Assembly: GCA_963804645.1 (NCBI GenBank)
Contig: CAWDRG010000011.1
Span: 183,466-247,465 of the forward strand
DNA: 64,000 bases
From: an uncultured Bacillota bacterium
GTDB lineage: Bacteria > Sysuimicrobiota > Sysuimicrobiia > Sysuimicrobiales > Segetimicrobiaceae
Direction of reading: 5' to 3'
In this document: positions 8,370-48,398 of the stretch, in pieces
How positions within the stretch are numbered: position 1 is the first letter of the stretch
How the letters are laid out: the number at the start of each line of letters is the position of its first letter
Program-made: the position numbers and the translations under genes
The notes under the pieces: generated by a model
The model's database searches: none
What the model saw: only the letters and a program-made list of their open reading frames with translations
Told to the model about the DNA's origin: nothing

Positions 8370-8415
8370 ACGATAGCAACGGCGCCGCGCTCCGCCTATC
8401 CGTCCGCGGCCCGAT
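8370..8415 (-). promoter_or_regulatory. Regulon box ATCCG-N8-CCGAT (8398-8415) plus extended -10 TGcTATCGT for enzyme #1
   Basis: Box to -10 spacer is 22 bp. Confidence 0.75.
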
Positions 8416-8481
8416 TCCTCGCCGGGACGCAATGCCCCGGACCCGCGCGGGCGCGCGGGTCCGGGGAGACATCGCACGGCG

Positions 8482-9198
8482 TCAGAACGCGGCGCGCCGG
8501 GGGACGTGCATGGCGTGCCGCAGCCAGGCCTCGTCCCGCTGCAGGTACTCGTCCAAGAGACTCGCGGCTTCGCGATAGAACGCGGTCGCGGCTCCCGCCC
8601 GCACGTCCACGACCCATTCGGGCACCCAGCGGCGCAGATGCCGGTCGAGAAACTTCAGGCGCTTGGCGAGCGCCTCGGGGGCGTCGCCCGCCGCGAGCTG
8701 CTCGGCGGATTCCAGCGCCAAGTGCTGCATGATCGCCAGTTCGACCGCGATGTGATCGGCCGGCGCATGAAACTCGTCGCCGACCCGGACGCCCTCTGTG
8801 CGCAGCCACGTCGTGACGTCCCCGAGCGCCTCCCCGTAGAACCGCCGCTCCGGACTCGTGTACACCGATTCGTACGGCGGCGCGAGCCCGGGGCCCGGCC
8901 CGATAAACAACCGTGCGTAGTCCACGGCCATCTCCTCGACCGTCGTCCCGGGATCGAGGTCCCGGGACGACGTGAGGCACTGCAGGAGGGGCCCGGCTTC
9001 ATCCCCGACGCCGCACGCCACGGCCAGTTCCACGAGCGACGCCCGCGTCTCGTCGCTGCACAGGCGCACCCACGCGTCCTGGGTCAGTTCACGCGCGAAC
9101 GCGCCCGACAGCAGCCCGTACAGTTCTGCGCGGGCCGCCTGGGCCGCCGCCTGGCGGCCCCCCGGCGACTCTAAGACGTCCTGGCCGTTGGCAACCAT
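8482..9198 (-). CDS. TorD/DmsD-family redox enzyme maturation chaperone
   Basis: YARLFIGP, PPYESVY, PADHIAVEL, FLDRHL..W; starts right after the stop of enzyme #2. Confidence 0.92.
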   Translation of the reverse strand: MVANGQDVLESPGGRQAAAQAARAELYGLLSGAFARELTQDAWVRLCSDETRASLVELAVACGVGDEAGPLLQCLTSSRDLDPGTTVEEMAVDYARLFIGPGPGLAPPYESVYTSPERRFYGEALGDVTTWLRTEGVRVGDEFHAPADHIAVELAIMQHLALESAEQLAAGDAPEALAKRLKFLDRHLRRWVPEWVVDVRAGAATAFYREAASLLDEYLQRDEAWLRHAMHVPRRAAF

Positions 9199-9199
9199 G

Positions 9200-11599: not shown

Positions 11600-11668
11600 C
11601 GTCCGACCTCCCTCTCATGTCACGCCCATGTGGGCGTGTCGCCCTTGAGATATGCGTCCGTCATCCTC

Positions 11669-11714
11669 AGCCTACAGGGCCCGAGCGAAACGAGACATCC
11701 GTCCGAGGCCCGAT
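11669..11714 (-). promoter_or_regulatory. Regulon box ATCCG-N8-CCGAT (11697-11714) plus -10 TAGGCT for enzyme #2-torD
   Basis: 22-bp spacer. Confidence 0.75.
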
Positions 11715-11832
11715 TTCGCGCGCATCACCGCCCGACCGCGCCCCGCGCCGGCGCAGGCCCCGGCGCGAGGCACACCGAACCACACGGGAGCACGCACCGA
11801 GCCACACACGCTTCCACGAGGGGGACACGTCG

Positions 11833-12156
11833 ATGGCACTTCCAACCGCGTACGAGGACTTTCAGAAGAAGTACCCTGGAATCTGGCAGGCCTACGATCG
11901 CCTCGGCGCCGCGGCGCACGCGGCCGGACCGCTCGATGAGAAGACACGCGCGCTGGTGAAGCTCGGCATGGCGGTCGGACGCCAGGCGGAGGGGGCCACC
12001 CACGCGCATGTCCGGCAGGCGGTGCGGGCCGGAGCGACGCCGGACGAGATCCGCCACGTCGTCCTCCTGGCGATCACCACCCTGGGGTTCCCCGCGATGA
12101 TGACCGCCCGCACCTGGGTCGAGGAATCCCTGTCAGGCCGGAACGCCACTCCCTAG
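11833..12156 (+). CDS. Carboxymuconolactone decarboxylase (CMD/AhpD-like) family protein
   Basis: GPLDEKTRALVKLG, HAHVRQA..AGATPDEI, TTLGFP; GAGGGG RBS. Confidence 0.88.
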   Translation: MALPTAYEDFQKKYPGIWQAYDRLGAAAHAAGPLDEKTRALVKLGMAVGRQAEGATHAHVRQAVRAGATPDEIRHVVLLAITTLGFPAMMTARTWVEESLSGRNATP

Positions 12157-12185
12157 GACGACCGCCTCACGAACGCGCGAGCGCA

Positions 12186-18097: not shown

Positions 18098-18143
18098 AGC
18101 CTATCGACAGCCCCGGACACTGTGTATCCGGTCGCTAGCCGAT
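18098..18143 (-). promoter_or_regulatory. Regulon box ATCCG-N8-CCGAT (18126-18143) plus -10 TAGGCT for enzyme #4 (and probably #3 and the cytochrome)
   Basis: 22-bp spacer. Confidence 0.75.
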
Positions 18144-18190: not shown

Positions 18191-18236
18191 ATACGTTCGG
18201 GACCCGATGGCACGCCGCGCGCGCGGGCCCTATCAT
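18191..18236 (+). promoter_or_regulatory. Regulon box ATACG-N8-CCGAT plus -10 TATCAT, rightward
   Basis: 22-bp spacer; target transcript unclear. Confidence 0.6.
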
Positions 18237-19886: not shown

Positions 19887-20324
19887 CTACCGGACGACCA
19901 GCACCGGGACCCCGGCACCGTGCAGCACGCGTTCGCTCACGCTGCCGAGGATCAGTCCCCCGAGCTGCCCCAGCCCGCGGCAGCCGATCACGATCATGTC
20001 GGCCGGCATCTCCGCGGCCGTCTTCACGATAAGCGCCGATGGATCCCCGTTGCGATAGAGACGCGTGATCGGGACGTCCACGCCGGCGAACTCCTGGGCC
20101 GTGGTGTCGAGGATCATCTGCCCGGCACGCGCGAGCCCTTCCTCGAGAGTGTTGAAGTCGACCATCGTTTCGGGCCCGGCCCCACCGTAGGCGATCGCCG
20201 GGACGTGGCCGACGTTGATTAGGGTGATCTCGACTGGGCGCAGTTCCCGGGCGAGTCGGGCCGCGAGAGCCGCGGCGCGAAGCGCGTGCGGAGAGCCGTC
20301 AGTCGCGACGAGTAGACGCATCAC
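19887..20324 (-). CDS. Universal stress protein
   Basis: LLVATDGS, IVIGCRG, LGSVSERVL. Confidence 0.95.
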   Translation of the reverse strand: MMRLLVATDGSPHALRAAALAARLARELRPVEITLINVGHVPAIAYGGAGPETMVDFNTLEEGLARAGQMILDTTAQEFAGVDVPITRLYRNGDPSALIVKTAAEMPADMIVIGCRGLGQLGGLILGSVSERVLHGAGVPVLVVR

Positions 20325-20411: not shown

Positions 20412-20529
20412 AAGGTACCATCGGGCGCCTCGGCGAGGCATCGGTCGCGCAGATGATTTGTCCCGCGCCGCCGCCGTCCAGGATCGGCCCTGGGCCCGAT
20501 GGCGCGCGGCGGCGGCCCCGCAGTATCCT
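20412..20529. promoter_or_regulatory. Back-to-back regulon promoters: ATCGG-N8-ATGAT (20440-20457, leftward, TGgTACCTT) and ATCGG-N8-CCGAT (20483-20500, rightward, TATCCT)
   Basis: Spacers of 22 and 23 bp. Confidence 0.7.
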
Positions 20530-20574: not shown

Positions 20575-21243
20575 ATGCATGCGCGAGAGATGATGAGTAC
20601 GCCGGTCATCACCGTCCGCCCAGAAGCCCCGCTCAAGGAGGTCGCCGCGCTGATGATCGCGCGGGGAGTCAGCGGCGTTCCGGTCGTCGACCGGGACGGA
20701 CGTCCCCTCGGCATGATCTCCGAATCGGACTTCCTCGCGCGCGAGGAAGTCGGACAGTACACCGGCGTCTTCACCCGCCTCGCCGAGACCTTCGGGGCGG
20801 GCGCAAAGGTCCACGGGCGCACGGCGGCGGACCTGATGACCAGTCCGATGATCACGGCGGGCCCCGACACGACGGCGCGCGAGTTGGGACACCTGATGGC
20901 CGCCAACGCCATCAACCGCGTGCCCATTGTCGAGGACGGACGCATCGTCGGTATCGTCACCCGGGCCGACGTGCTCCGGACGCTGATCCGTCCGGACGAG
21001 GCGATCACCGCCGAGATCCGGTGGCGGTTCGAGCACGAGCTGTGGATCAACCCGGATGACCTCCGCGTCGAGACGCGGAGTGGGGTCGTCACGCTGGCCG
21101 GCACCGTCGAGACGCGCGCGGACGCGGAGCTCTCAAAGCGCTGGGCGCGCGCCGTCGACGGGGTGGTGGACGTCGACGCGCAGGGCCTCCGGTACGAAGT
21201 CGACGATCGTCGGATCCGGGCCACCACCGACCACGCTCGCTAG
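20575..21243 (+). CDS. CBS-pair + BON domain protein
   Basis: VSGVPVVD, IVGIVTRADV, GVVTLAGTV...VDGVVDV; GAGGAGG RBS. Confidence 0.92.
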   Translation: MHAREMMSTPVITVRPEAPLKEVAALMIARGVSGVPVVDRDGRPLGMISESDFLAREEVGQYTGVFTRLAETFGAGAKVHGRTAADLMTSPMITAGPDTTARELGHLMAANAINRVPIVEDGRIVGIVTRADVLRTLIRPDEAITAEIRWRFEHELWINPDDLRVETRSGVVTLAGTVETRADAELSKRWARAVDGVVDVDAQGLRYEVDDRRIRATTDHAR

Positions 21244-21393: not shown

Positions 21394-22524
21394 TTAGTCG
21401 ACGCGCTTCTGGAAGCGGCTGATCGCCGCGGCAAAGACCACGATGCCGATGACCATCATCGGCACGATCTGACGCCACAGGTCCGGGAACCCGACTCCCT
21501 TGATCATAATGCCGCGGATGATCGTCACAAAGTACGTGAGCGGCATGATGCTGCCGAGAATCTGCAGCGCCCGAGGCAGCGACTCACGCGGGAAGATGAA
21601 TCCCGACAGCAGGATGCCGGGCAGGAGAATCAGCTGCGTCATCTGCGCGGCCTGCTGAAACGTCTTCGACACCGTGGAGACCAGCGCGCCGATCCCCAGC
21701 GTGCTGAAGAAGAACACCAGCGACATGGCGTACAACAACAAGAGGCTCCCCTTGATCGGCACGTGAAACCACGCGCTCGCCAGAAACAGCGTCAGGGTGA
21801 TCTGCACGTATCCGAGGCCGACGAGCGGGATCACCTTGCCGAGCATCAGCTCCAGCGCGGTGATCGGGGTCACCACCAACTGCTCCATCGTCCCCAGCTC
21901 GCGCTCACGCACGATCACGATGATCGCCTGGAACGTCGTGACAAACATCAGCACAATCGCGATCGTGCCCGGCACGAGAAAATTGACGTTCTCGAGGGTC
22001 GGGTTATACCAGGCGCGCGCCCGCACGTCGATCGGCAGCGCACTCGGCGCCCCTCCCGTCAGCCGCTGCGTCTGCTGGATCACGAGCTGCGTCGACAGCT
22101 CCTGGCCGATCTCGGACGCGATGCCGAGCACCGTGCGCGCCGACGTCGGCTCGGACGCGTCGACGATCACCTCCACCTGCGCGGTACGCCCGCTGCGGAG
22201 GCGCGACGCGTAGTCCGGCGGGATCCAGATCCCGATCTTCGCCTGGCCGCCGTCGATCAGCCGACGCACTTGGTCGAACGTGCTCGTGTAGTAGTCGAGG
22301 TCGACGTAGGTGGTGTTCGTGAACGCGTTGAGCAGTGTCCGGCTCTCCAGGGTGTGGGACTCGTCGAAGACCGCGGTGGCGATGTGGGTGATGTCGTTGC
22401 TCAGATACCCGTACAGCATCAACTGGACGATCGGCAGCGTGATGACCGAGATCAGCGTCCGCCGATCCCGCAGAATCTGGATGACCTCCTTGCGGATGAC
22501 CGCAAACAGGCGACGACGATTCAC
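21394..22524 (-). CDS. ABC-2 exporter permease (YbhR/YbhS-like)
   Basis: KEVIQILRD, WYNP, RERELGTMEQL..TP, LLSGFIFP. Confidence 0.93.
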   Translation of the reverse strand: MNRRRLFAVIRKEVIQILRDRRTLISVITLPIVQLMLYGYLSNDITHIATAVFDESHTLESRTLLNAFTNTTYVDLDYYTSTFDQVRRLIDGGQAKIGIWIPPDYASRLRSGRTAQVEVIVDASEPTSARTVLGIASEIGQELSTQLVIQQTQRLTGGAPSALPIDVRARAWYNPTLENVNFLVPGTIAIVLMFVTTFQAIIVIVRERELGTMEQLVVTPITALELMLGKVIPLVGLGYVQITLTLFLASAWFHVPIKGSLLLLYAMSLVFFFSTLGIGALVSTVSKTFQQAAQMTQLILLPGILLSGFIFPRESLPRALQILGSIMPLTYFVTIIRGIMIKGVGFPDLWRQIVPMMVIGIVVFAAAISRFQKRVD

Positions 22525-23492
22525 GGACGACCCTCCGCGGGCGCCTGCGGCGTCCCGGCGCCGGGCCGCTCGACAAGGGACACGAACGCGTCCTCAAGGG
22601 ACGGGGCCACCGGGCGGACCGTGTCGACCAGCACGCCCCGGTCCGCCAAGGCCTTCCGGATCGCCGGGATCGCCGTGTCCGGGTCCTGCACCGTGACGTG
22701 AATGGCCCGCCCGAAGAGGGCCGCCTCATGCACCTCCGGGACCTGCGACAGCGCGTCGAGCGCCATCCCGTACTGCGCGGTCATGATCTCGAACAGCGCG
22801 CCCGACATCTCGCGACGCTCGATCTCGTCCGGCGTGCCCATGGCGATGATCCGACCGCCGAAGATGAACGCGAGCGTATCGCAGTGTTCTGCTTCATCCA
22901 TATAGTGCGTCGTGACCATCACCGTCACCCCGTCCTCGGCGAACTGGCCAATGAGGTCCCAAAACTCCCTCCGGCTGACCGGGTCGACGCCGCTGGTGGG
23001 CTCATCGAGAAAGACCATGCGCGGGCGGTGCAGCACGGCGCACCCCAGCGCCAGGCGCTGCTTCCATCCGCCCGACAGCGTCCCGGCCAGCGCGCGCTCG
23101 CGGCCCCGCAGATCGGCTCGGGCGATCCACTCGGCCGACCGGTCGCGCGCCTCGGGTCGCGATAGTCCGTACACCCCCGCGAAAAACGCCAGATTCTCTT
23201 CGACCGTCAGGTCGTCGTACAGGCTGAACCGCTGGGACATGTAGCCGATCCGCGCTTTGATCGCCTCCGGATCGCGCGCCACGTCGTAGCCGAGGACGTC
23301 CGCGCCGCCCGCAGTCGGGCTGAGGATGCCGCACAGCATCCGAATTGTGGTCGACTTGCCCGCCCCGTTCGGCCCGAGGAAGCCCCATACCGCACCGGAG
23401 GGGATCTCGAAGTTGAGATGGTCGACCGCCACGAACGCCCCGAAGGTCCGCGTCAGGTCGCGGGCCCGGACCGCGGCCGGCCGGTCAGACAC
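22521..23492 (-). CDS. ABC exporter ATP-binding subunit (YbhF-like)
   Basis: GPNGAGKS, LSGGWKQR, FLDEPT, TTHYMDEAE. Confidence 0.93.
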   Translation of the reverse strand: MSDRPAAVRARDLTRTFGAFVAVDHLNFEIPSGAVWGFLGPNGAGKSTTIRMLCGILSPTAGGADVLGYDVARDPEAIKARIGYMSQRFSLYDDLTVEENLAFFAGVYGLSRPEARDRSAEWIARADLRGRERALAGTLSGGWKQRLALGCAVLHRPRMVFLDEPTSGVDPVSRREFWDLIGQFAEDGVTVMVTTHYMDEAEHCDTLAFIFGGRIIAMGTPDEIERREMSGALFEIMTAQYGMALDALSQVPEVHEAALFGRAIHVTVQDPDTAIPAIRKALADRGVLVDTVRPVAPSLEDAFVSLVERPGAGTPQAPAEGRP

Positions 23493-24444
23493 GGGGGGTG
23501 CCTCCGGACGCGGTGCGCCGCTCCACAATCTCGGAGACAAAGACATCTTCGAGGGACGGCGCAATCTGCACGGCGTCCCGCACCGTGACGCCGCCCGCGG
23601 ACAGCCTCGCGGTGAGCGCGGCGATCGCCGCCTGCGCGTCCCCGACGACAATGTGGAAGCGATCGCCGATCACGGTCTCCGAGAGGATCTCGGGGGAGCG
23701 CTGGATGATTCGGCGCGCGGCCGCCCTCGGCTCGGCCACGAACTCGACGACATCGCCGCGCATGCGCTGCTTCATGACGGCCGGATCTGCGACGGAAATC
23801 AACTCGCCGGTGTGCAGCAGCCCCACGGTGGTGCACCGATCCGCCTCGTCCATGTACGTCGTGCTGGCCAGGATCGTCACGCCGCCGCGGTTCAGGTCGT
23901 AGAGAATGCGCCAGAACTCGCGCCGCGACACCGGGTCGACCCCGGCGGTGGGCTCGTCGAGGAGCAGCACGCTCGGTTCGTGGATCAGCGTGCACGTGAG
24001 CGCCAGCTTCTGCTTCATGCCGCCCGAGAGCTGCGCGCCGAGCCGGTCTCGAAACGCAGCCAGCCCGCTGAACTCGAACAGCCGCCGGCTCCGTTCCTCG
24101 CGCACGTCCGGGGGCACGCCGAAGAGGTCCGCATAGAAGTTCAGGTTCTCCTGCACCGTCAGATCGCCGTACAGGCTGAACCGCTGGGGCATGTACCCCA
24201 GGCGCTCGCGCACGCGGTCCGGCTGTCGCCCGAGGTCGATCCCCTCGATCGTCACGGCACCCGCGTCGGCCGCGATCGCGCCGCAGAGCAGTCGCAGCGT
24301 CGTGGTCTTGCCCGCCCCGTCCGGCCCCAGCAGCGCGAAGATCTCGCCCCGCGGAACCTGAAACGACAGATGCTTTACGGCGACCGTCGCGCCGAATCGG
24401 CGGGTCAGCCCCTCGACGATGATCGCGGGCCGCTCCTGCGCCAT
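23485..24444 (-). CDS. ABC exporter ATP-binding subunit (YbhF-like)
   Basis: GPDGAGKT, LSGGMKQK, LLDEPT; start trimmed to MAQERP. Confidence 0.92.
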   Translation of the reverse strand: MAQERPAIIVEGLTRRFGATVAVKHLSFQVPRGEIFALLGPDGAGKTTTLRLLCGAIAADAGAVTIEGIDLGRQPDRVRERLGYMPQRFSLYGDLTVQENLNFYADLFGVPPDVREERSRRLFEFSGLAAFRDRLGAQLSGGMKQKLALTCTLIHEPSVLLLDEPTAGVDPVSRREFWRILYDLNRGGVTILASTTYMDEADRCTTVGLLHTGELISVADPAVMKQRMRGDVVEFVAEPRAAARRIIQRSPEILSETVIGDRFHIVVGDAQAAIAALTARLSAGGVTVRDAVQIAPSLEDVFVSEIVERRTASGGTPRV

Positions 24445-25754
24445 CACCGCGGCGTCCGATCGTGTTCCGTCCCGACCAAGATCTCCGCGTCGGCCGGCAT
24501 ACCGGGTTTCAGGCTCAACTCGTCGTTGGTGAGCTGGATCTTGACCGAAAACACGAGTTTGACGCGGTCGCCGACCGTCTGAACGTTGACGGGCGTGAAC
24601 TCGCCCTTGCTGCTGATCTCGACGACGCGCCCCTCGAAGATCCGGTTCGGGAAGCTGTCGATGCTGACCCGCGCACCCTGCCCCACCTTGACCTCCGCGA
24701 TCTGATCCTCCGGGACATACGCCCGCAGCCAGATATCGTGCAGGTCGACCAGCGTGAAGAGGGGCGTCCCGGCCGCCACCACCTCGCCCACCTCGACGTA
24801 CTTCGTCTGGACCACCGCCGCGCGCGGCGAGACAACAACGTTGTGGCCCGCGATCACCTGCAGGTAGGTCAGATTGGCTCGGGCCTGTGCGAGCGCGGCC
24901 TGGGCGGCGGCCAGATCCTGCCGCCGCTGCGCGATGACCGTGTAGCCCGCCTGCGCGTTTGCGAGGCCCGCGTGCGCCGCCGCTACCCCCGCGTGCGCCG
25001 CCGTCACCGCCTGCGTCTGGATCTCCACCTGCCGCAGATTCGTCCGCGCCGACGCGACGTTCGCCTGTGCCTGTGTCACCGCGTCCCCCGCGCTCCGCCG
25101 CTGCGCCACCGCCGCGTCGTATGCCGCCTGAACCGCGTCCACCTCGTCCGCCGAGACCGCGCCCTGCGCAAACAGCATCTTCTCCCGCCCCAGGTTGTTC
25201 CGCGCCGTCACGAGCGCCGACTCCGCGCCCCCCACCTGCGCCTCCGCCGACGCCGCCTGCGCCGTGGCCGACGCCACCGCGTCCCGCAGCGTCCGCTCCG
25301 CAATCGCCAGCTGCGTCTCCGTCTGCGGCACGCCCGTCCCGGCCGTCGTCACCTGCGCCTGCGCCGCCCCCACCTGCGCCCCCGTCACCTGCTCCTGCGC
25401 CGCCACCGCCCGCTCCGCGTCCCCCACCTGCGCCGCCGCCTGCTGCACCGCCGCCTGGGCCGCCGCCACCTGCGCCGCCGCTTCCTGGGGCTCCAGCTCC
25501 GCCACGACCTCCCCCGCCTTCACCGTGTCCCCCTCGTCGACGGTCAAGCGGATGATCTGGCCGGCGACCTTGGGGCTCACGTCGACCTCGGTGGCCTGGA
25601 TCGACCCGGACGCGAACAGACGACCGGCTTCCGCACGCTGCTCGTACAGCCGCCATCCCGCCCAGGCCAGAAGACCCAGTGCCAACGCGACCAACGCGAT
25701 CGTGAGGAGGATCCGGCCCCGTGGTGCGCGGCGCGCGGGCGCGTCGGCGGCCAT
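24444..25754 (-). CDS. HlyD-family periplasmic adaptor (YbhG-like)
   Basis: N-terminal TM, EGDTVKAGEVVAEL, long Ala/Gln coiled coil, EFTPVNVQT, LKPGMPA. Confidence 0.92.
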   Translation of the reverse strand: MAADAPARRAPRGRILLTIALVALALGLLAWAGWRLYEQRAEAGRLFASGSIQATEVDVSPKVAGQIIRLTVDEGDTVKAGEVVAELEPQEAAAQVAAAQAAVQQAAAQVGDAERAVAAQEQVTGAQVGAAQAQVTTAGTGVPQTETQLAIAERTLRDAVASATAQAASAEAQVGGAESALVTARNNLGREKMLFAQGAVSADEVDAVQAAYDAAVAQRRSAGDAVTQAQANVASARTNLRQVEIQTQAVTAAHAGVAAAHAGLANAQAGYTVIAQRRQDLAAAQAALAQARANLTYLQVIAGHNVVVSPRAAVVQTKYVEVGEVVAAGTPLFTLVDLHDIWLRAYVPEDQIAEVKVGQGARVSIDSFPNRIFEGRVVEISSKGEFTPVNVQTVGDRVKLVFSVKIQLTNDELSLKPGMPADAEILVGTEHDRTPR

Positions 25755-26845
25755 CAGCGCGCCACCCCGGCCCGTGTCGCATCGGCGAGGAGCACGACGT
25801 GCGCCTGCGTGCCCGGCCGAAGGAGCTGGTCGGGCGTGTCGATGCGAATTTTCACGCCGAACATCAGCTTCACACGATCCTCTTTGGTCTGCACGCTGAC
25901 GCTCGTGAACTCCGGCTGATCGTTGATCTGCACGATGCGGCCCGCAAACGTCCGCGAGGGCTGCGCATCGAGCGTGACCCGCGCGCGCTGTCCGAGCGTC
26001 ACGCGCCCGATCTCGTTCTCGCTCAGATAGATGCGGATCCAGATGTCCGACGTGTTCAGCATCGTGTAGAGGGCCAGCCCCGCGGGGACCACTTCACCCA
26101 CTTCGACGTTCTGCGTTTGAATCACACCGTCGCGGGGCGCCAACACGTCGTCGTGGCCCGCGATCAGCTCAGCGTAGCGAAGGGAGCTTCCCGCGCGCGC
26201 CAGCGCGGCTTGGGCGGCGGCCAGCTCCTGCCGCCGCTGCGCGATCAGCGTGTAGCCCGCCTGCGCGTTCGCGAGGCCCGCGTGCGCCGCCGCCACCCCC
26301 GCGTGCGCCGCCTCTACCGCCTTCTCCTGGATCTGCACCTGCATCAAGTTCGCCCGCGCCGACGCCAGGGCCGCCTCCGCCTGCGTCACCGCGTCCCCCG
26401 CGCTCCGCCGCCGCGCCACCGCCGCGTCGTATGCCGCCTGAACCGCGTCCACCTCGTCCGCCGAGACCGCGCCCTGCGCAAACAGCATCTTCTCCCGCCC
26501 CAGGTTGTTCCGCGCCGTCACGAGCGCCGACTCCGCGCCCCCCACCTGCGCCTCCGCCGACGCCGCCTGCGCCGTGGCCGACGCCACCGCGTCCCGCAGC
26601 GTCCGCTCCGCAATCGCCAGCTGCGTCTCCGTCTGCGGCACGCCCGTCCCGGCCGTCGTCACCTGCGCCTGCGCCGCCCCCACCTGCGCCCCCGTCACCT
26701 GCTCCTGCGCCGCCACCGCCCGCTCCGCGTCCCCCACCTGCGCCGCCGCCTGCTGCACCGCCGCCTGGGCCGCCGCCACCTGCGCCGCCGCTTCCTGGGG
26801 CTCCAGCTCCGCCACGACCTCCCCCGCCTTCACCGTGTCCCCCTC
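25103..26845. repeat. 433-bp direct repeat (25103-25535 = 26413-26845) inside the two HlyD genes
   Basis: No mismatch found by eye at offset 1310; the two translations are identical over this stretch. Confidence 0.85.
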
Positions 26846-27040
26846 ACGCGCCAGCAACCGCAGCACACGGCCCGGCAGGTAGGCCGTCAGACCGACGGGC
26901 GTCGCTTCAATAGTGCCCGCGCCGCCGATCGGACCGGGGGGCGCAGATTGCGCGTACACCCACCATCCGACGGCCGCGACGACGACGAGCGCGGCCGCGA
27001 TGCGCGCACCCACCCCAGGGCGGCGTGGTGCTGACCCCAT
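25754..27040 (-). CDS. HlyD-family periplasmic adaptor, second paralogue
   Basis: Same architecture; EFTSVSVQT, LRPGTQA; GGAGG RBS before MGSAP. Confidence 0.92.
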   Translation of the reverse strand: MGSAPRRPGVGARIAAALVVVAAVGWWVYAQSAPPGPIGGAGTIEATPVGLTAYLPGRVLRLLAREGDTVKAGEVVAELEPQEAAAQVAAAQAAVQQAAAQVGDAERAVAAQEQVTGAQVGAAQAQVTTAGTGVPQTETQLAIAERTLRDAVASATAQAASAEAQVGGAESALVTARNNLGREKMLFAQGAVSADEVDAVQAAYDAAVARRRSAGDAVTQAEAALASARANLMQVQIQEKAVEAAHAGVAAAHAGLANAQAGYTLIAQRRQELAAAQAALARAGSSLRYAELIAGHDDVLAPRDGVIQTQNVEVGEVVPAGLALYTMLNTSDIWIRIYLSENEIGRVTLGQRARVTLDAQPSRTFAGRIVQINDQPEFTSVSVQTKEDRVKLMFGVKIRIDTPDQLLRPGTQAHVVLLADATRAGVAR

Positions 27041-27079: not shown

Positions 27080-27125
27080 ACCGTACCAAGCCCGACGCGC
27101 CCGAGCCATCGGGCCGACAGCCGAT
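27080..27125 (-). promoter_or_regulatory. Regulon box ATCGG-N8-CCGAT (27108-27125) plus TGgTACGGT for the ABC exporter operon
   Basis: 22-bp spacer. Confidence 0.75.
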
Positions 27126-27246: not shown

Positions 27247-27292
27247 GTCATGCCTCCGCCCGATGGCTCCCGCGGCCGATCGATGCCACACT
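27247..27292 (+). promoter_or_regulatory. Degenerate regulon box GTCAT-N8-CCGAT plus TGcCACACT for the CBS-BON/GNAT-ligase operon
   Basis: 22-bp spacer. Confidence 0.55.
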
Positions 27293-30890: not shown

Positions 30891-32075
30891 ATGCCGCTCG
30901 GAAACAAAACCGGGGTCTTTCGAAGCCTTTCCCACGTCCTCAACCGGTCGTTCACGCTGCGGGAGGCTCTCGACGGCGCGCTGCCGCGCATCGTCGAGCT
31001 CGCGGAGGCCGACGCGGGCTGGATCTTCCTGCGCAACGCCGAGACCGAGGCGTTTACCCTGGCCGCCGATGTCAATCTGCCGCCCTCCCTCCTCGTCGCC
31101 GGACGGCGGCGCATGGCGGGCGAATGCCGGTGCATCCAGATGCTCCGGGACGGGATGCTGACGCAGCCGGTGAACCTGGTCGAGTGCCTCCGGCTGGAGC
31201 AGGCGCTGCCGAACTCGCCGGACCGGCACCAGCACGCGACGATCCCGCTCTTGTCACAGAACGAAACTACGGTGGGGATCTTGAACCTGCTGCTGCCTCC
31301 CGAACGAACGCTGAGCGAAGCCGACCTCAACGTCCTCGAGGCGCTTGGGCACGAGGTCGCGGTCGCCGTGCAGCGCGCCCACCTGTTCGAAACGGTGCGC
31401 GACCGCGAGGCGACGACGCGGGAGTTGATGCAGCGCCTCATGACGTCCCAGGAGGAAGAGCGCAGGCGGATCGCGCAGGACCTGCACGACCACGCCGGGC
31501 AGATCATGACGGCGCTGATCATGCAGCTCACCCACCTGATCGGACATCTGAGCACCACGGACACGCAGAAGCTCACCGGCGAACTGGAGCGCTTTCGGGG
31601 CATCGCCGAACAGGGTCTCGACGAGGTCCACAAGCTCGTGTACGACCTGCGGCCGCTCATCCTCGACGATCACGGGCTCGGCCCGGCGGTCACGTCCTAC
31701 GTGGAAACGCACATCCGTCCCGCGGGGCTGGAGGTCGATTTCAGGACCGTGGGACTGGAGGGCCGGCTGCCCCAGGAAACTGAGATCGCGGCCTACCGGA
31801 TCATCCAGGAGGCCGTCACGAACACCCTGCGCCACGCGGAGGCGAAACGGCTCGAGATTCGGCTCGATCGACGCAAGGACTGGCTGATCGTCATGGTGCG
31901 GGATGACGGCAAGGGATTTGACGTCGAGGACACGCCGCGCGCTTCAAAGAGCCTCGGCCTTCACGGGATGCGTGAGCGGGCCGAACTGCTGGGCGGGACG
32001 CTGCAGGTGCTGTCGGTGCCGGGCGCCGGGACCACGATCCTTACGCGGCTCCCGTTCCTCACGCGTTCCGCCTGA
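30891..32075 (+). CDS. Soluble GAF-HisKA_3 histidine kinase with CxC...C motif (YhcY/AirS-like)
   Basis: GAF with ECRC...VNLVECLRL; ERRRIAQDLHD H-box; QEAVTNTLRHA, DDGKGF, LGLHGMRER; no TM segment. Confidence 0.92.
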   Translation: MPLGNKTGVFRSLSHVLNRSFTLREALDGALPRIVELAEADAGWIFLRNAETEAFTLAADVNLPPSLLVAGRRRMAGECRCIQMLRDGMLTQPVNLVECLRLEQALPNSPDRHQHATIPLLSQNETTVGILNLLLPPERTLSEADLNVLEALGHEVAVAVQRAHLFETVRDREATTRELMQRLMTSQEEERRRIAQDLHDHAGQIMTALIMQLTHLIGHLSTTDTQKLTGELERFRGIAEQGLDEVHKLVYDLRPLILDDHGLGPAVTSYVETHIRPAGLEVDFRTVGLEGRLPQETEIAAYRIIQEAVTNTLRHAEAKRLEIRLDRRKDWLIVMVRDDGKGFDVEDTPRASKSLGLHGMRERAELLGGTLQVLSVPGAGTTILTRLPFLTRSA

Positions 32076-32151: not shown

Positions 32152-32337
32152 TCAGCTCGCCGGCCGCTCCGCGCCGGGCATTCTGGCCTCGGGCTTCGAC
32201 ACCGTCGCGGGGGGCGCTTCCTCGCCCGCCTCGCCGTAATAGCACTCCTCGCAGAACCGCATCACGATCCCGTCCCGTTCCAGTTCCTTGCGCACGGTGC
32301 GAAGGCCGCACTTCTCGCACGGCGATTGTGTCGTCAT
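32152..32337 (-). CDS. Small CxxC-x18-CxxC metal-binding (zinc-ribbon-like) protein
   Basis: CEKC...CEEC; AGGGAGGT RBS; own boxed promoter. Confidence 0.75.
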   Translation of the reverse strand: MTTQSPCEKCGLRTVRKELERDGIVMRFCEECYYGEAGEEAPPATVSKPEARMPGAERPAS

Positions 32338-32371: not shown

Positions 32372-32547
32372 ACCCTACCATGGGACCCCGCCGACCGGCA
32401 TCGGGCCGACAGCCGATCTTCACCGCGATGGAACCCCGCCGACCGGGACGCAGGGCAGCGCGCCGTCCCGCGCGGTCTATCGTCTCAAGATCGGACCCGC
32501 AAATCGGCTAGGCAACCGATGCGAACCCGTCGGCCATCGTCTACCGT
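32372..32547. promoter_or_regulatory. Back-to-back regulon promoters: box 32400-32417 (leftward, TGgTAGGGT) and box 32503-32520 (rightward, TACCGT)
   Basis: Both are perfect ATCGG-N8-CCGAT; spacers of 22 and 21 bp. Confidence 0.75.
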
Positions 32548-32585: not shown

Positions 32586-32819
32586 ATGAACTCATCCGCG
32601 CCGGTACCGGCGCCACGAATCATCGGGACCGTCACCTGGTACAACAAGGTGACTGGCTTCGGCTTTATCCGAGTCGAGGGCATGAGCGACGTGTTCGTGA
32701 ACGAAGCCGCCATCGACGTCCCCGGCCGCCGGGTCCTGCGAGAAGGAGAAACCGTGGAGCTTGAGATCGTGAACCGCGACGGCCGGCGGGAGGCGACGCA
32801 CGTCGTCCCGGTGAACTGA
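32586..32819 (+). CDS. Cold-shock domain protein
   Basis: GTVTWYN...GFGFI...DVFV, LREGETV; GGAGGT RBS. Confidence 0.88.
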   Translation: MNSSAPVPAPRIIGTVTWYNKVTGFGFIRVEGMSDVFVNEAAIDVPGRRVLREGETVELEIVNRDGRREATHVVPVN

Positions 32820-33797: not shown

Positions 33798-33843
33798 ACC
33801 CTAGCATCCGCGCGCGAGCCGGGGCATCGGGTGTGGACCGGAT
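33798..33843 (-). promoter_or_regulatory. Regulon box ATCGG-N8-CGGAT (33826-33843) plus TGcTAGGGT for CBS-USP
   Basis: 22-bp spacer. Confidence 0.75.
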
Positions 33844-35744: not shown

Positions 35745-36233
35745 CTAGTCGGCCTCGCCGGTCACGGCCACGACGACCTTGCGCCGCTCCACCGCCGGCC
35801 TCTTGGGCATCACGATCTCCAGGACGCCGTGGGACAGCGTCGCGCGCACCTGCTCGGCCATGACATCGCCCGGCAGGGCGATCGTGCGCGCGAAACGTCC
35901 GGCGACGCGCTCATTCAGCAGCACCGCGCCCTCGCCGGCGACGGCGCGGGAGCCGCGGACCGACAGGATGGTGCCCTCGAGCGAGATCTCGACGTCCGAT
36001 TCGCGCACGCCGGGAAGGTCCGCGGTCACGACGAAGGCGGTCTCCGTCTCGCAGACGTTCAGCGCCGCACCGTAGGACACGGCCTCGTCGACGAGCTGCG
36101 CGTCGCCGCGCAGTTGCTCGTCCATCCGCTGCACGCGGTCCCGCAGCGCCTCGAAATCCCGCCAGGGGTCCCAGCGGCCGGGATGCCACCACTGCATGCC
36201 AGGCTGCGCCGTCCGGATGTGAAGAAGCGCCAT
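35745..36233 (-). CDS. Hsp20/alpha-crystallin small heat-shock protein
   Basis: ADLPGV, ER..GRFARTIALP, ATLSHGVLEI. Confidence 0.92.
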   Translation of the reverse strand: MALLHIRTAQPGMQWWHPGRWDPWRDFEALRDRVQRMDEQLRGDAQLVDEAVSYGAALNVCETETAFVVTADLPGVRESDVEISLEGTILSVRGSRAVAGEGAVLLNERVAGRFARTIALPGDVMAEQVRATLSHGVLEIVMPKRPAVERRKVVVAVTGEAD

Positions 36234-36276: not shown

Positions 36277-36322
36277 CTCATACCATGCCGCCGCGGTCGC
36301 GGGCATCGGACGTCCACCCGAT
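36277..36322 (-). promoter_or_regulatory. Regulon box ATCGG-N8-CCGAT (36305-36322) plus TGgTATGAG for hsp20 (possibly adk-pfkA)
   Basis: 22-bp spacer. Confidence 0.7.
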
Positions 36323-36783: not shown

Positions 36784-39477
<2,694 letters not shown>

Positions 39478-44492: not shown

Positions 44493-44538
44493 ATCCATGC
44501 TCCGCCTGATACCGCCGGAGGCCGCCCCGTCGCACAAT
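44493..44538 (+). promoter_or_regulatory. Degenerate regulon box ATCCA-N8-CTGAT plus -10 CACAAT for USP
   Basis: 22-bp spacer. Confidence 0.55.
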
Positions 44539-44648: not shown

Positions 44649-45110
44649 ATGGACACGAGTCGACACATGATTCTGGCTCCGACGGATATGTCCGAGGCAT
44701 CGGGACGCGCGGTGGCCCACGCGGTTGAGCTGGGGCACCGTCTGGGCGTCGGGGTGCTGCTGTGTCACGTGCTGTCCCAGCAGCAGGTCGATCAGCGCCT
44801 GGACGCCGGCGAGTTCATCGACGTCCAGCTCGACCAGGGCGCGCGATGAGCTCGAACGGTGGTACCGGACGCTGCTGCCCCGCGCGGTGCGCGAGCCCGT
44901 GCGGGTCGAACTCCACGTCGCATCGGCGCGCCGGTCGAAGAGATCCTCGAGCTCGCGGAGGACCGCCACGTCGAGATGATCGTCATGGCCACCCACGGCC
45001 GCGCCGGACTGCCCCGGGTGCTGTTCGGTAGTGTGGCGGAGGGTGTGCTCCGGCATGCGCCGTGCCCCGTCGTGACCCTGCGCATGAACCCCCAGCTCGC
45101 GCACGCGTGA
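44649..45110 (+). pseudogene. Universal stress protein split over three frames (indels ~44843 and ~44925)
   Basis: ILAPTDMSEAS; ARDELERWY; IVMATHGRAGL..FGSVAEGVLRHAPCPV. Confidence 0.8.
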
Positions 45111-45317
45111 CGGCGGGCGCGTCATCGCATCGCGTTGGAGGAACTCCTAGGCGCGCCGCGAGCGCGCGCGGCGGTTGACCGACGCACCTAAGCGGAACAC
45201 GTGTTGGGCGTGTTCTGAGTACGTTGAGCGGGCGCGGCCTGCGCCGGACGCATCAGATGGAACGACCGCGCGGGGTGCCGGCGGCCGGACCGGCCCCCGG
45301 CACCCGCGGCTCGCAGG

Positions 45318-45759
45318 CTACGCGGTTCGAATCAGCAGGACAGGGCACCGACGTCGCGCGCACGACCCCTTCGGCTACGCTCCCCAGGAAGAGGTGGCCG
45401 ATCCCGTGGCGGCCGTGGGTGCCGATGACGATCAGGTCCGCCCCCCACCGCTGGCTTTCCGCCACGATCACCGCCCCGATCCGATCGCCGAGCGCTTCGA
45501 TCGGCGCGACCGAGACCGCGGCGATACCCGCCGCGCGCGCTTCCGCCGCGGCGCGGTCGACAATCTCCTGTCCCGCCTGCCGCGCCGCCTCGACGATGGG
45601 GCCGATGTCGAAGCCTTCAGACGTGTAGAACACCCGCGTGTCGAGCACGTGCACGATCCGCACCTCGGCGCCCTGTTCCTTGGCCAGACTCAGCCCGTGA
45701 TGGAGTGCCGTGGTGCTGCACGCACTGTCGTCGACCGCGATGAGGATGTGCTGATACAT
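45318..45759 (-). CDS. Universal stress protein (probable extra base near 45344)
   Basis: MYQHILIAVDDS, IGTHGRHG, LGSVAEGVV; removing one C restores the usual SVPVLLIR ending with a stop at 45318. Confidence 0.88.
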
Positions 45760-45786
45760 CTCGGTCCCTCCCTTCCGGCAGCCGGC

Positions 45787-48234
45787 TCAGACGCTGGCGA
45801 TCGGCACGTAGTCGTTCGGGCGCTCACCCCCAACATACAGTTCGATCTCGACCAGATTGGTGTAGGCGACCGGCCCCTGCGCAAGCTGGGACGTCCCCCG
45901 CTGAGACGTCAGGACGTTGGTGCAGCCGCCGCGATCGAGACTGCCGATGCGTCCCGGTTCGGCCGGCGTGTACCACGACCCTTCGTGCAGCAGCGCCACC
46001 CGCGGGCGGATGCGCGTCGAGACGACCGCGGCGGCGAGCACCTGTCCGCGATCGTTGAAGACCCGCACGACGTCGCCGGTCGCGATCCCGCGGGCCGCGG
46101 CGTCCGCGGGGTTAATGAGGATCGGCTCGTACCCATTGACCTTGCTGAACTGGTGGAGCTCCAGGACGTTGTCGTACGACGAATGACGGCGGTAGATCGG
46201 ATGCTTGGTGATCAGATGGAACGGGTACGTCGCCGCCTTGGGGCTGCCGAGCCATTCAAAGGGCTCCATCCACTGCGGGGTCGGCGGGCAGTCGGTGTAC
46301 CCGAGTTTCGCGATGGCCGCCGAGTAGATCTCGATCTTTCCCGACGGGGTGTTGAGCGGATTGGCCGCCGGGTCCTTGCGGAACGCCGCGAAGGCCACGT
46401 ACGGCGTCTCGTCGATCGGGAGCTCGTAGTAGCCGACCTCCTTGAACTGTTCGTAACTCATGGGGATCTTGGCGGTGGCGTAGATCTTTTGGAGCCACTG
46501 GTCGCCCGTCAGCCCCATCGTGAACTTGTCCTGGAACCCGAGCCGTGCCGACAGCTGCGTGAAGACCTCGAAGTCGCTCTTGGATTCGCCCAGCGAATCG
46601 ATCACCTTATGCTGGTACACGACGTACCGCCACGTCTGACTGATGTCGTCGCGCTCGAGCAGCGTGTTGATCGGCAGCACGATGTCCGCGTGCCGCGCCG
46701 ACGGGGTCCACCAACTGTCCTGAATGATGATCGTCTCCATCTTGCGGAAGACCTGCAGGTTCTTGTTCACCTCATCGTGCTGGTTGAGCGTGGAGCCGCC
46801 GACCCAGTAGATGAGCTTGATCTCCGACTTCCCGGGCTGCGGGTACTGATACGTAGTGCCGTTCTGGTGCATCGTGAAGGGCGCGTTCAGGACCGCGTCG
46901 GCAAACTGCTGGTCCAGGATCAGCTGGGTCACCGGGTTGGGGGCTCCCGGAAACCCGGTGGGACCGGTCCCCGTGACGCGGGCGTCCCCGGCAGAGCCGA
47001 ATCCTGGGATCGACGCCGTCAGCCCGCCGCCGGGCAGCCCAAACTCACCCTTCATCGCCGCCAGCGTGATCAGCATCCTCACCTGCTGCTCGCCGTGATC
47101 CTGCCGCTGAATGCCGAAGCCCGTCGTAATTTTGACGCGCGGGGTCTGCGCGAATTCGCGGGCGAGCGCCCGGATGCTATCCGCCGAGATGTCGGTCAGC
47201 CCGGCCGCCCACTCGGGGGTCTTCGGCTGGTGGTCGGTCTCCCCCATGACGTACTGCCGGAACGGTTCGAATCCCACCGTGTACGTGTCGACAAACGCCT
47301 TGTTGTACAGGTTCTCGGTGATCATGACGTATGCGATCGCCGCGGCCAACGCCGAGTCGGTGCCCGGGCGGATCGGAATCCACTCCTGAGACACTTCAGC
47401 GGTGTCCGAGTAGAGCGGGTCGATCGTGATCAGCTTCCCACCCCGCTGCTTGAAGGCGGCGATCCAGTCGTTCGTGCGTCCCTGCAGCGGCCCGACCACC
47501 TTCTGGACGTTCATGGGGTCGCTGCCCCAGGCGATCAGAAGATTGGTGTTGGCGACGGTATCGGCCCACGAGTCGTCGGGGAAGATCACTCCCCAGGAGT
47601 ACGGCGCGGCCCACTGCCACGCAGCGTAGCTCTTGTTGCCGATGCGGCTCGTGTACCCGCCGTAGAGGCTGAGAAAGCGGGCCAGCTGCCCCGTCTTGGT
47701 GTTCAGCAGACCCGTGGTCGACCACCCGCCGATCATGCCTCCGAAGATCCCCTCGTTGCCGTACTGCGTCTTGACGCGTTTGAGCTCCCCTGCCACGAGG
47801 TTGAGCGCCTCGTTCCAACTCACCCGCCGGTAGCGCGGGACGCCTCGAGTCTCACGGTTGCCGCCGCCGGGCTTCCAGTCGACCCGGACCATCGGGTACA
47901 GAATCCGGTCGGCTGCGTACGTCCGGTGGTGCCAGTTCAGCGCCATCGGCGAGGCCAGGTTGTTTGGATAATCGAGACTGCTGACGCGGATGATGCGTCC
48001 GTCCACGACGTGGACGTTGATCAATCCCTCGTTGTCGGCGCTGGCAAACACCCGCTCTGCCCCCGCCGTCGGCTCCAAGGACGTGGCGGCGTACGCCGCC
48101 TCCGGGCCCCGCGTCAGCACCTCCCCGAAGATCGAGGTCGCGGCCGCGGCAGCCCCTACGCCCTTCAGGAACTCCCGACGACGCACGCGTCCGTCCGGTC
48201 CCCCCGCATGCGTCCGTGCTGATGAATCAGTCAT
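45787..48234 (-). CDS. Tat-exported DMSO-reductase-family molybdoenzyme #5 (close paralogue of #1)
   Basis: RRREFL; GNKSYAAWQWAAPYSWG and RRHSSYDN shared with #1; GGAGG RBS before MTDSS. Confidence 0.93.
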   Translation of the reverse strand: MTDSSARTHAGGPDGRVRRREFLKGVGAAAAATSIFGEVLTRGPEAAYAATSLEPTAGAERVFASADNEGLINVHVVDGRIIRVSSLDYPNNLASPMALNWHHRTYAADRILYPMVRVDWKPGGGNRETRGVPRYRRVSWNEALNLVAGELKRVKTQYGNEGIFGGMIGGWSTTGLLNTKTGQLARFLSLYGGYTSRIGNKSYAAWQWAAPYSWGVIFPDDSWADTVANTNLLIAWGSDPMNVQKVVGPLQGRTNDWIAAFKQRGGKLITIDPLYSDTAEVSQEWIPIRPGTDSALAAAIAYVMITENLYNKAFVDTYTVGFEPFRQYVMGETDHQPKTPEWAAGLTDISADSIRALAREFAQTPRVKITTGFGIQRQDHGEQQVRMLITLAAMKGEFGLPGGGLTASIPGFGSAGDARVTGTGPTGFPGAPNPVTQLILDQQFADAVLNAPFTMHQNGTTYQYPQPGKSEIKLIYWVGGSTLNQHDEVNKNLQVFRKMETIIIQDSWWTPSARHADIVLPINTLLERDDISQTWRYVVYQHKVIDSLGESKSDFEVFTQLSARLGFQDKFTMGLTGDQWLQKIYATAKIPMSYEQFKEVGYYELPIDETPYVAFAAFRKDPAANPLNTPSGKIEIYSAAIAKLGYTDCPPTPQWMEPFEWLGSPKAATYPFHLITKHPIYRRHSSYDNVLELHQFSKVNGYEPILINPADAAARGIATGDVVRVFNDRGQVLAAAVVSTRIRPRVALLHEGSWYTPAEPGRIGSLDRGGCTNVLTSQRGTSQLAQGPVAYTNLVEIELYVGGERPNDYVPIASV

Positions 48235-48352
48235 GACACGCCTCCCTGGTCCCGTGCCGGCGATCCCCGACCGTCGCACTCATGCGTGCCCCTCGACGCG
48301 CTTGCCGCCTCTTCCCACGGGACGCTCTCGCTTCGCGACCTTCACCGCTTCC

Positions 48353-48398
48353 ACGCTAACAAGCGCCCCCCGAACGGAGTATCCGTCGTGCGCCCGAT
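48353..48398 (-). promoter_or_regulatory. Regulon box ATCCG-N8-CCGAT (48381-48398) plus TGtTAGCGT for enzyme #5-USP
   Basis: 22-bp spacer. Confidence 0.75.

Follow-up and report, generated by a model that had tools for sequence, protein, structure and literature searches.

An 18-bp box at a fixed distance from the -10 hexamer, and the NarL-type regulator that probably acts through it, in a bacterial lineage without cultured members

The DNA analysed here, called the window, is a stretch of 64,000 nucleotides (G000:C11:183466-247465) of the source assembly G000, which comprises 5.31 Mb in 22 contigs with a G+C content of 69%. An earlier note on this stretch described 14 intergenic copies of an 18-bp box, each at a nearly constant distance from a -10-like hexamer, and ascribed them to one activator of respiration, stress, export and carbon genes. 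The boxes and the genes behind them were followed through the window, the whole genome and related genomes, and it appears probable that they are the sites of a NarL/LuxR-type response regulator that is itself encoded in the window.

The locus and its genes

Genes were called with a codon log-odds model that had been trained on 568 long open reading frames (ORFs) of high third-position G+C (GC3) and was applied to all contigs. The features that bear on the boxes are listed by position; promoter rows give the box, its -10-like hexamer and the distance between the two.

4201..4246, + strand: degenerate box (..GACCCTAT) with TACGCT, 22 bp; before the CBS and regulator genes
4275..4928, + strand: CBS-pair protein gene (Pfam PF00571, E 2e-28)
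5009..5686, + strand: NarL/LuxR-type response regulator, receiver and GerE helix-turn-helix (HTH); candidate box-binding activator (Pfam, PDB matches)
5767..8202, - strand: TorA/BisC-family molybdoenzyme 1 (Pfam, NCBIfam)
8370..8415, - strand: box 8398-8415 with TATCGT 8370-8375, 22 bp
8482-9198, - strand: TorD/NarJ-like chaperone gene (Pfam, NCBIfam)
9200-11599, - strand: TorA/BisC-family molybdoenzyme 2 (Pfam, NCBIfam)
11669..11714, - strand: box 11697-11714 with TAGGCT 11669-11674, 22 bp
12237-12953, - strand: TorC-like cytochrome c gene (Pfam, NCBIfam)
13046-15451, - strand: molybdoenzyme 3 (Pfam, NCBIfam)
15618-18023, - strand: molybdoenzyme 4 (Pfam, NCBIfam)
18098..18143, - strand: box 18126-18143 with TAGGCT 18098-18103, 22 bp
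18191..18236, + strand: box 18191-18208 (ATACG variant) with TATCAT 18231-18236, 22 bp
19887..20324, - strand: USP gene (Pfam; covered by RNA contigs)
20412..20457, - strand: box 20440-20457 (distal half degenerate) with TACCTT 20412-20417, 22 bp
20483..20529, + strand: box 20483-20500 with TATCCT 20524-20529, 23 bp
20575..21243, + strand: CBS-BON protein gene (Pfam)
21394..27013, - strand: HlyD-HlyD-ABC-ABC-ABC2 exporter operon (Pfam)
27080..27125, - strand: box 27108-27125 with TACGGT 27080-27085, 22 bp
27247..27292, + strand: box 27247-27264 (distal half degenerate) with CACACT 27287-27292, 22 bp
27324-28013, + strand: CBS-BON gene (Pfam)
28129-30798, + strand: GNAT-fused ADP-forming acyl-CoA synthetase, Pat-like (Pfam, NCBIfam)
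30891..32075, + strand: soluble GAF-HisKA_3-HATPase histidine kinase, final gene of the box-27247 operon (Pfam)
32152..32337, - strand: 61-codon ORF without family match (gene call; covered by RNA contigs)
32372..32417, - strand: box 32400-32417 with TAGGGT 32372-32377, 22 bp
32503..32547, + strand: box 32503-32520 with TACCGT 32542-32547, 21 bp
32586..32819, + strand: cold-shock-domain protein gene (Pfam)
32909-33328, - strand: USP gene (Pfam)
33374-33766, - strand: CBS gene (Pfam)
33798..33843, - strand: box 33826-33843 with TAGGGT 33798-33803, 22 bp
35745..36233, - strand: Hsp20 / alpha-crystallin gene (Pfam)
36277..36322, - strand: box 36305-36322 with TATGAG 36277-36282, 22 bp
44493..44538, + strand: degenerate box 44493-44510 (..CCTGAT) with CACAAT 44533-44538, 22 bp
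44649-44849, + strand: 66-codon USP-like ORF behind box 44493 (Pfam)
45253-45759, - strand: USP gene (Pfam)
45787-48186, - strand: molybdoenzyme 5 (Pfam)
48353..48398, - strand: box 48381-48398 with TAGCGT 48353-48358, 22 bp
53355..53401, + strand: box 53355-53372 with TACCAT 53396-53401, 23 bp
53549-54817, + strand: solute-binding protein gene behind box 53355 (Pfam)

The box and its promoters

All 14 boxes of the earlier note were found where it had placed them, and by the codon-based gene calls all are intergenic. The pattern given for them, ATC(G/C)G-N8-CCGAT, holds strictly for ten (8398, 11697, 18126, 20483, 27108, 32400, 32503, 33826, 36305 and 48381), but the other four are degenerate, mostly in one half: 18191 (ATACG...), 20440 (ATCAT... 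on the reading strand), 27247 (GTCAT...) and 44493 (ATCCA...CCTGAT). Written as ATCSG-N8-CCGAT, the strict form gives 18 strand matches in the window, amounting to 12 sites. A comparison with shuffled sequence, which had been proposed as a check, placed this far above background: the expectation under dinucleotide shuffling was 0.94 (standard deviation 1.18, maximum 4), none of 100 shuffles reached 18, and the excess in the window is about 19-fold. The whole genome holds 68 strict sites, 12 of which fall in the window, that is in 1.2% of the genome. One strict site absent from the original list, at 53355-53372, is intergenic, has its hexamer at 23 bp and lies upstream of a solute-binding protein gene; an exact match at 57935, inside a coding region, is probably due to chance.

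The last base of the box lies 22 bp (range 21-23 bp) upstream of a hexamer of the form TANNNT, often TGnTANNNT. Among the 14 boxes the distance is 22 bp at 12, 21 bp at 32503 and 23 bp at 20483, and every hexamer that had been named is present. The extended TG, which had been said to occur at many of the promoters, precedes the -10 hexamer as TGn at eight of the 14. The half-site CCTAT of the earlier note was also found, within 4201-4218 and with TACGCT 22 bp downstream; the distal half of this box, AATTACT, is like that of box variants outside the window, and the site is a candidate weak autoregulatory promoter for the CBS-regulator operon. All four molybdoenzyme promoters share one variant, as claimed, namely the CGGAT form in the promoter-proximal half, and their spacers are not alignable; the CGGAT pentamer also occurs in the distal half of box 33826.

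Forty sites in the genome with a -10 at 21-23 bp gave the consensus RR-AT(C/A)-SG-(G/C)-Y-S-NN-S-R-M-C-S-GAT-R. Its proximal half, R-M-C-S-G-A-T, is nearly invariant across the 40 sites and its distal half is loose, with ATC in 28 and ATA in 12; a distal form ATACT(C/G)T recurs and is found upstream of the regulator's own operon as well. No -35-like hexamer follows the box, the sequence there being T-G/A-S-C..., and a second box of the same orientation within 60 bp upstream was seen at only one of the 40 promoters. The divergent pairs 18126/18191, 20440/20483, 27108/27247 and 32400/32503 carry one box for each promoter. If transcription starts 7 nt past the hexamer, a position predicted from the -10 and not mapped, the box spans -52 to -35 with its centre at -43.5. 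The class II geometry that had been proposed, a site near -43 abutting the -35 position, is thus matched by a predicted centre of about -43.5 and by a distance of 21-23 bp to the -10 at 14 of 14 sites.

Occurrence in the genome and in related genomes

A matrix of 21 columns was built from the 14 boxes of the window, the -10 being excluded. At scores of at least 17 it found 48 sites in the genome, 42 of them intergenic, including the 14 training sites. Outside the window, 41 oriented intergenic hits (score at least 15) had TANNNT at an offset of 22 in 12 cases, 23 in six and 21 in two, and each remaining offset from 10 to 35 held none or one. The coding control, 46 hits outside the window with scores of at least 13, gave one, none and none at offsets of 21, 22 and 23.

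All 5-mer palindromes with spacers of 4-12 bp were ranked by their intergenic bias in a genome that is 16% intergenic, and ATCGG-N8-CCGAT took rank 4 (20 intergenic, 14 coding). The top palindrome, GTACT-N4-AGTAC, was considered as a regulator site and rejected, being a tandem repeat: about 24 tandem copies of the 10-bp unit GTACTGGGTA in the intergenic interval C19:220410-220660 are the source of ranks 1 and 2. Rank 3, CGAAC-N4-GTTCG, is strongly intergenic (13 against 3) and resembles a LexA (Cheo) box of the Gram-positive type.

Box and spacing were joined in the composite pattern ATCGG-N8-CSGAT-N21-23-TANNNT, which occurs 18 times in G000 against none in a control read backwards, so that the combination stands above background as the earlier note had expected. 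The composite was then sought in a phylum set of 73 genomes, each at least 85% complete and all of one order; it was present in 60, with controls at 0-1. The plain box RATCSG-N8-CSGATR without the -10 was tried as a marker and discarded, as it occurs in 41 of 41 relatives, including genomes that lack the regulator; it fails to discriminate because many of its matches are coding background. Composite hits also replaced the footprinting of orthologous promoters, since a search for Hsp20 orthologues in 40 relatives (E at most 1e-30) returned only the gene of G000 itself. On the nearly closed chromosome of a relative, G041, a segment of about 130 kb (G041:C1:680000-807000) holds 14 of the 18 composite sites, which indicates that physical clustering of the regulon, as in the window, is conserved.

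Regulon content

The regulon is put at about 40 promoters, 15-16 of them in the window. Those of the window comprise four TorA/BisC promoters serving five paralogous genes, a TorD/NarJ-like chaperone and a TorC-like cytochrome; three USP genes and a USP fragment, CBS, CBS-BON, Hsp20, a cold-shock-domain protein and the 61-codon ORF; the HlyD/ABC-2 exporter operon; and the operon of CBS-BON, acyl-CoA synthetase and GAF kinase. Elsewhere in G000 the box precedes PntAB, a cold-shock-like gene, the paralogous regulator, CBS, USP, GAPDH, an N-ATPase operon, a 2-oxoacid:ferredoxin oxidoreductase, Nramp, two molybdoenzymes, glutamate dehydrogenase and a paa operon. Counted genome-wide, four of five USP and four of five CBS paralogues are box-driven. 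In two distant relatives, G029 and G040, the composite promoter precedes ACS, CBS, HisKA_3 kinases, receivers and the regulator itself. Of the four classes of genes that the earlier note had seen co-ordinated, respiration, stress and export were upheld, but carbon only in part, because neither aconitase nor glycogen phosphorylase has its own box promoter; nor is there one for PFK and adenylate kinase, which follow downstream of Hsp20. The regulon would appear to be a low-oxygen or low-energy survival programme, functionally analogous to the DosR and OsdR regulons.

Several members deserve separate mention. The TorA/BisC family is expanded, with five paralogues in 43 kb (5767-18023 and 45787-48186) and at least two further box-driven copies (C5:262195-264597 and C13:4441-6840); such an expansion of S-/N-oxide reductases is unusual for one genome. 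A second cluster of boxes, on contig C22, includes a box-driven gene (C22:30996-32132; L001:11996-13132) for a baeRF-family-10 protein, with a weak match to the NCBIfam Rv2629 family (39 bits against a cut-off of 320); Rv2629 itself we take to be a DosR-regulon gene of a ribosome hibernation factor family. At C22:47379-51528 (L002:8379-12528) lies a complete box-driven N-type F-ATPase operon containing AtpR/ATPase_gene1, and the divergent box beside it drives a protein of 213 residues without family match. Behind box 18191 the next called gene, CHAD at 18887, is about 650 bp off. The interval 18244-18886 has no called ORF, no Pfam match in its two longest frames and no Rfam family, none having been found in the window at all; it could hold a non-coding RNA or a small gene missed in annotation, or simply form a long leader. 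The ORF at 44649-44849 aligns to the first third of the USP profile only and may be a truncated USP gene.

RNA evidence

RNA was represented by assembled contigs from four metatranscriptome runs of one study; such contigs cannot prove transcription starts, and the end positions are those of the pieces listed. They cover the USP, CBS-BON, small-ORF, cold-shock-like, USP/CBS and Hsp20 genes. At four promoters contig ends can be set beside the predicted starts:

Hsp20 promoter: contig ends 36252-36260; predicted start 36270
CBS promoter: contig ends 33779 and 33788; predicted start 33791
Small-ORF promoter: contig end 32352 (two runs); predicted start 32365
Cold-shock-like promoter: contig start 32564; predicted start 32554

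The ends thus lie 3-18 nt inside the predicted starts, which is a weak hint only, and among the pieces listed none runs into a box. The USP contigs stop inside the gene (20219-20223) and, like the uncovered parts of 18001-38000, are uninformative either way.

The candidate regulator

The one transcription factor of suitable fold in the window is the receiver-GerE protein at 5009-5686. Its receiver matches PF00072 (E 2.5e-29) over profile positions 1-111 of 111, and the alignment with VraR spans the whole receiver, including the Asp in ..vavlDvsMP.., presumably the phosphoacceptor; the C-terminus matches the GerE HTH domain PF00196 (E 2.4e-22). Matches in the PDB for the whole protein were to VraR (E 2.7e-49), NarL (E 5.7e-38) and DevR (E 8.2e-38). 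The DNA-binding domain matches structures of VraR, LiaR, SsrB, DosR, GerE and NarL, with E 7e-17 for VraR and 9e-11 for DosR. No NCBIfam equivalog reached its cut-off for this protein, the best being MctR (192 bits against 300). Judged by these matches the regulator belongs to the NarL/FixJ family, and its closest solved relatives are VraR/LiaR, followed by NarL and DevR.

About 11 NarL-type regulators were found in G000 by BLAST. One of them, at C22:29299-29991, is 82% identical to the regulator of the window and has a box 59 bp upstream; the recognition helix KTVQ(T/S)HRAHIM is found only in these two paralogues, and they sit in the two box-rich regions of the genome. Orthologues directly behind a composite promoter were seen in G001:C83, G010:C70, G021:C7 and G040:C12, the last confirmed by Pfam, so that box-driven orthologues or paralogues of the regulator are found in five genomes in all.

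An orthologue (E at most 1e-75) is present in 56 of the 73 genomes of the phylum set. With G000 left out, at least three composite sites were found in 45 of 55 genomes with the regulator as against two of 17 without it, and nine of those 17 have none. The 17 include the unpublished G034, which has neither a regulator nor a kinase orthologue and no sites; without it the figures become 2/16 and 8/16. Seven genera contain both states; in six, every genome that lacks the regulator falls below all its regulator-bearing congeners in site number. The earlier attribution to one NarL/NreC-like activator is therefore supported as to the NarL type, whose presence tracks the sites in the 72 genomes, but not as to the rest: there are two paralogues, and the nearest solved structures are VraR/LiaR rather than NreC/DosR.

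A public set of 79 loci around regulator homologues was searched within a reach of 6 kb for matrix hits scoring at least 15. At 57% identity or more, 18 of 22 loci have such a hit and 11 of 22 a hit with a -10-like hexamer at 21-23 bp, against 6/57 and 3/57 below 55% identity. In the closer group the recognition helix reads KTVQTHRAHI(M/L)EKL, but for single substitutions in six loci; the group includes metagenome-assembled genomes (MAGs) labelled Chloroflexota, whose neighbouring kinases carry other sensor domains. Three exceptions below 55% identity are Acidobacteriota-labelled loci with the helix TVETHRAHIMEKL and the box variant ATACTGTC...CSGAT. Among public sequences the nearest regulator loci come from MAGs that bear the label Bacillota, Armatimonadota or just 'bacterium'.

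The candidate kinase and its GAF domain

The kinase at 30891-32075 is soluble and consists of GAF, HisKA_3 and HATPase domains (Pfam GAF_2; no PAS). In 16 of 40 relatives its orthologue is the same-strand neighbour of the regulator orthologue, and from this adjacency kinase and regulator would be a cognate pair that has become separated in G000. Four residues, C79, C81, C99 and H115, do not vary among 23 GAF regions, the most distant of which share 34% identity. Matches of the kinase to DevS/DosT among PDB sequences were confined to the ATPase domain, and a PDB sequence search with the GAF part gave no match. The AlphaFold model of the GAF domain (pLDDT 86.8) retrieved generic GAF domains only, without a pointer to a ligand, in a Foldseek search of the PDB and a search of the ESM Atlas.

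A precedent for Fe-S binding in a GAF domain is CSK/Hik2, as described in the available part of PMC6949291. Together with this precedent the CxC-X17-C...H motif makes a redox, oxygen or NO signal plausible, and the GAF domain of the kinase is a candidate metal- or Fe-S-binding sensor. In AirS the motif Cys-X7-Cys-X-Cys-X17-Cys holds a redox-active [2Fe-2S] cluster (from the sections available of PMC4601167 and PMC8774646). The place of the first Cys of AirS corresponds to position 71 here, which is Gly in G000 and Gly, Ser or Ala in relatives; H115 may replace it.

Proposed mechanism and alternatives

The preferred reading, to which a probability of roughly 0.7 is given, is that the boxes are sites of the NarL/LuxR-type regulator (the protein at 5009-5686, its C22 paralogue, or both), which would act as a class II activator of the survival regulon. 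The GAF histidine kinase would phosphorylate the regulator, a dimer of which would then bind the 18-bp imperfect palindrome RR-ATCGGGYC-NN-GRCCSGAT-R. Reckoned from the -10, the centre of the box would lie about 31.5 bp before the hexamer, near -43.5, and as the promoters have no -35 hexamer the bound dimer is taken to recruit RNA polymerase. Each promoter has one box, divergent pairs carrying one each. The system would be autoregulated, the kinase operon and the paralogous regulator being box-driven and the CBS-regulator operon probably so. Its signal would be redox or oxygen, and the CxC-X17-C...H motif in the GAF domain of the kinase would provide the metal or Fe-S site that perceives it.

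A number of observations weigh against this. The distal half of the box is loose, so that binding by a symmetric dimer is only assumed. The enrichment of high-scoring intergenic sites is partly circular, the matrix having been trained on the sites of the earlier note; this objection does not touch the spacing test or the composite-pattern test. G005 and G003 have 15 and 4 sites, respectively, and no regulator orthologue was found in either (both are MAGs, 86% and 94% complete). Conversely, ten regulator-bearing genomes have fewer than three strict sites, seven of them belonging to genus g10 with 0-1. No P value is given for the association, since the genomes are kin and not independent samples. 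As to the sensor, the first Cys of AirS is Gly71 here, in a comparison made with the published motif only, and to our knowledge no structure of an Fe-S GAF domain exists for comparison. Finally, G000 has 4-5 Crp/Fnr genes over the HTH_Crp_2 cut-off.

The last point bears on the possibility that some other factor, such as a Crp/Fnr-family protein, binds the box and that the NarL-type regulators are themselves no more than regulon members. Crp/Fnr proteins classically act from about -41.5 on palindromes, the box lies within 2 bp of that class II position, and the sites kept by G005 and G003 would be accounted for. This is nevertheless improbable, as a listing of the Crp/Fnr genes shows none within the window or the C22 cluster and none with a box promoter directly ahead of it, and the 5-N8-5 layout is longer than the 5-N4/N6-5 of that family. 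The regulatory genes found behind the box in G000, G029 and G040 are only HisKA_3 kinases, receivers and the NarL-type regulator, and the presence of this regulator tracks the sites. An equally small chance attaches to the same regulator binding as a repressor or anti-activator, with promoters that are constitutive after its release. The direction of control cannot be read from sequence, and some NarL-family proteins repress; repressor operators, however, are not normally kept at a constant distance immediately ahead of the -35 position, and 40 promoters that keep 21-23 bp without a -35 hexamer are unlikely to fire unaided.

It is more unlikely again that the proximal CSGAT is a -35-like element of an alternative sigma factor. 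The proximal half is certainly far better kept, with C14, G16, A17 and T18 each in 40 of 40 sites, partly as a result of selection by the matrix, but sigma-70-family spacers of 16-18 bp are shorter than the 22 bp seen here, the -10 is of the ordinary TANNNT/TGn type, and the element is palindromic with a conserved distal AAT(C/A) 13 bp away. That the boxes are a duplicated promoter or dispersed repeat without a dedicated regulator can be dismissed almost entirely: the five molybdoenzyme genes are paralogous, two of their boxes differ at only 1/18 bases and a box-like palindrome occurs inside two identical ISL3 copies, but flanks and spacers are not alignable between sites and the box stands before unrelated genes in 60 of 73 genomes. 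The ISL3-family copies (C8:113231 and C17:14678) each have a perfect box-like palindrome (..ATCGGGCCGCCGCCCGAT..) near the transposase gene, and TATCTT lies at a distance of 22 bp; the arrangement may be fortuitous, or the insertion sequence may carry a regulon promoter along.

Activation through the box by the NarL-type regulator is therefore retained as the most probable reading, and a wider claim can be attached to it tentatively, with the odds somewhat against it. According to this claim the Cys3His GAF kinase and an undescribed NarL clade, marked by the recognition helix KTVQTHRAHIMEKL, would together govern a DosR-like survival programme as its master switch for redox or oxygen, throughout this high-GC soil/peat lineage. 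The switch would have evolved independently of DosRST and would use a single class II box with closer GGGYC halves; the pair of regulator and box would extend, with other sensor domains, to MAGs labelled Chloroflexota and, in variant form, Acidobacteriota. If true, it would represent a widespread and unrecognised hypoxia or energy-stress regulon of soil bacteria.

Significance

The 18-bp box, the 22-bp rule and the named regulator and kinase provide a testable regulatory code for a lineage that has no cultured or tractable member. Applied to peat and soil metatranscriptomes, it could reveal the state of a single defined stress/anaerobiosis switch, and the GAF domain with the conserved CxC-X17-C...H motif may be a sensor of a new kind, binding metal or an Fe-S cluster. 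What would be new is the regulator branch, the box, the single-box architecture and the probable Fe-S or metal GAF; the two-component class II regulon of stress and anaerobiosis is of a known type.

Comparison with known systems

NreBC, NarXL and VraSR/LiaSR share with the present system the regulator family (receiver and GerE HTH) and the kinase class, HisKA_3. Genes of anaerobic respiration are under the control of NarL and NreC. For sensing, NreB relies on a PAS Fe-S domain, NarX is a membrane-bound sensor of nitrate and VraS/LiaS respond to envelope stress, whereas the kinase here is soluble with a GAF domain and no PAS. AirSR (YhcSR) of Staphylococcus aureus likewise combines a HisKA_3 kinase with a NarL-type regulator, and the CxC-X17-C spacing of AirS, as published, is identical to that found here; its regulon content is different, and a literature search found no consensus site for AirR. 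No description of the box was found in full-text literature, including that on DosR-like regulons outside Actinobacteria; supplements and subscription-only papers lie outside this coverage.

The likeness to DevR/DosR of Mycobacterium tuberculosis is broader. Both systems have a NarL-family regulator with one or more GAF-HisKA_3 kinases, both are autoregulated (here by prediction), and both include USP, alpha-crystallin/Hsp20, CBS, Rv2629-type (by a weak match here) and anaerobic respiration genes. In the portions available of PMC3177182, the proximal DevR box overlaps the -35 and is centred at -42.5 at tgs1, compared with about -43.5 predicted here, and the half-sites are G-rich, G4G5G6A7C8T9 in DevR and GGGYC here. 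The same source gives at least two tandem boxes as a hallmark of DevR, against the single box here. The regulator of the window scores better to VraR/LiaR, both as a whole protein and in its DNA-binding domain, and is not a DevR orthologue. DevS/DosT have tandem haem-GAF domains, but the kinase here has a single GAF with Cys3His.

OsdR-OsdK of Streptomyces coelicolor is described, in the available sections of PMC5069765, with the consensus AGGGCCGATCGGCCCT, a half-site GGGCC and the arrangement GGG-N8-CCC. Its regulon too was defined in silico from a palindrome, which precedes its own gene and clustered USP and stress genes (PMC5069765). The statement that the motif of the window is neither the FNR nor the DosR consensus is borne out, although its half-site does resemble the GGGCC of OsdR/DevR: the arrangement is GGG-N6-CCC here, with the halves 2 bp closer, and the outer AT/AT is conserved. 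In the same account the distance of OsdR sites from the start codon varies and binding was shown by electrophoretic mobility shift assay (EMSA), whereas the box described here keeps a fixed distance to the -10 and is known from sequence alone. The DosR and OsdR systems and the present one thus have similar gene content and promoter geometry but differ in regulator branch, half-site spacing, box number and predicted sensor chemistry, a contrast that bears on the repeated evolutionary assembly of dormancy-type regulons.

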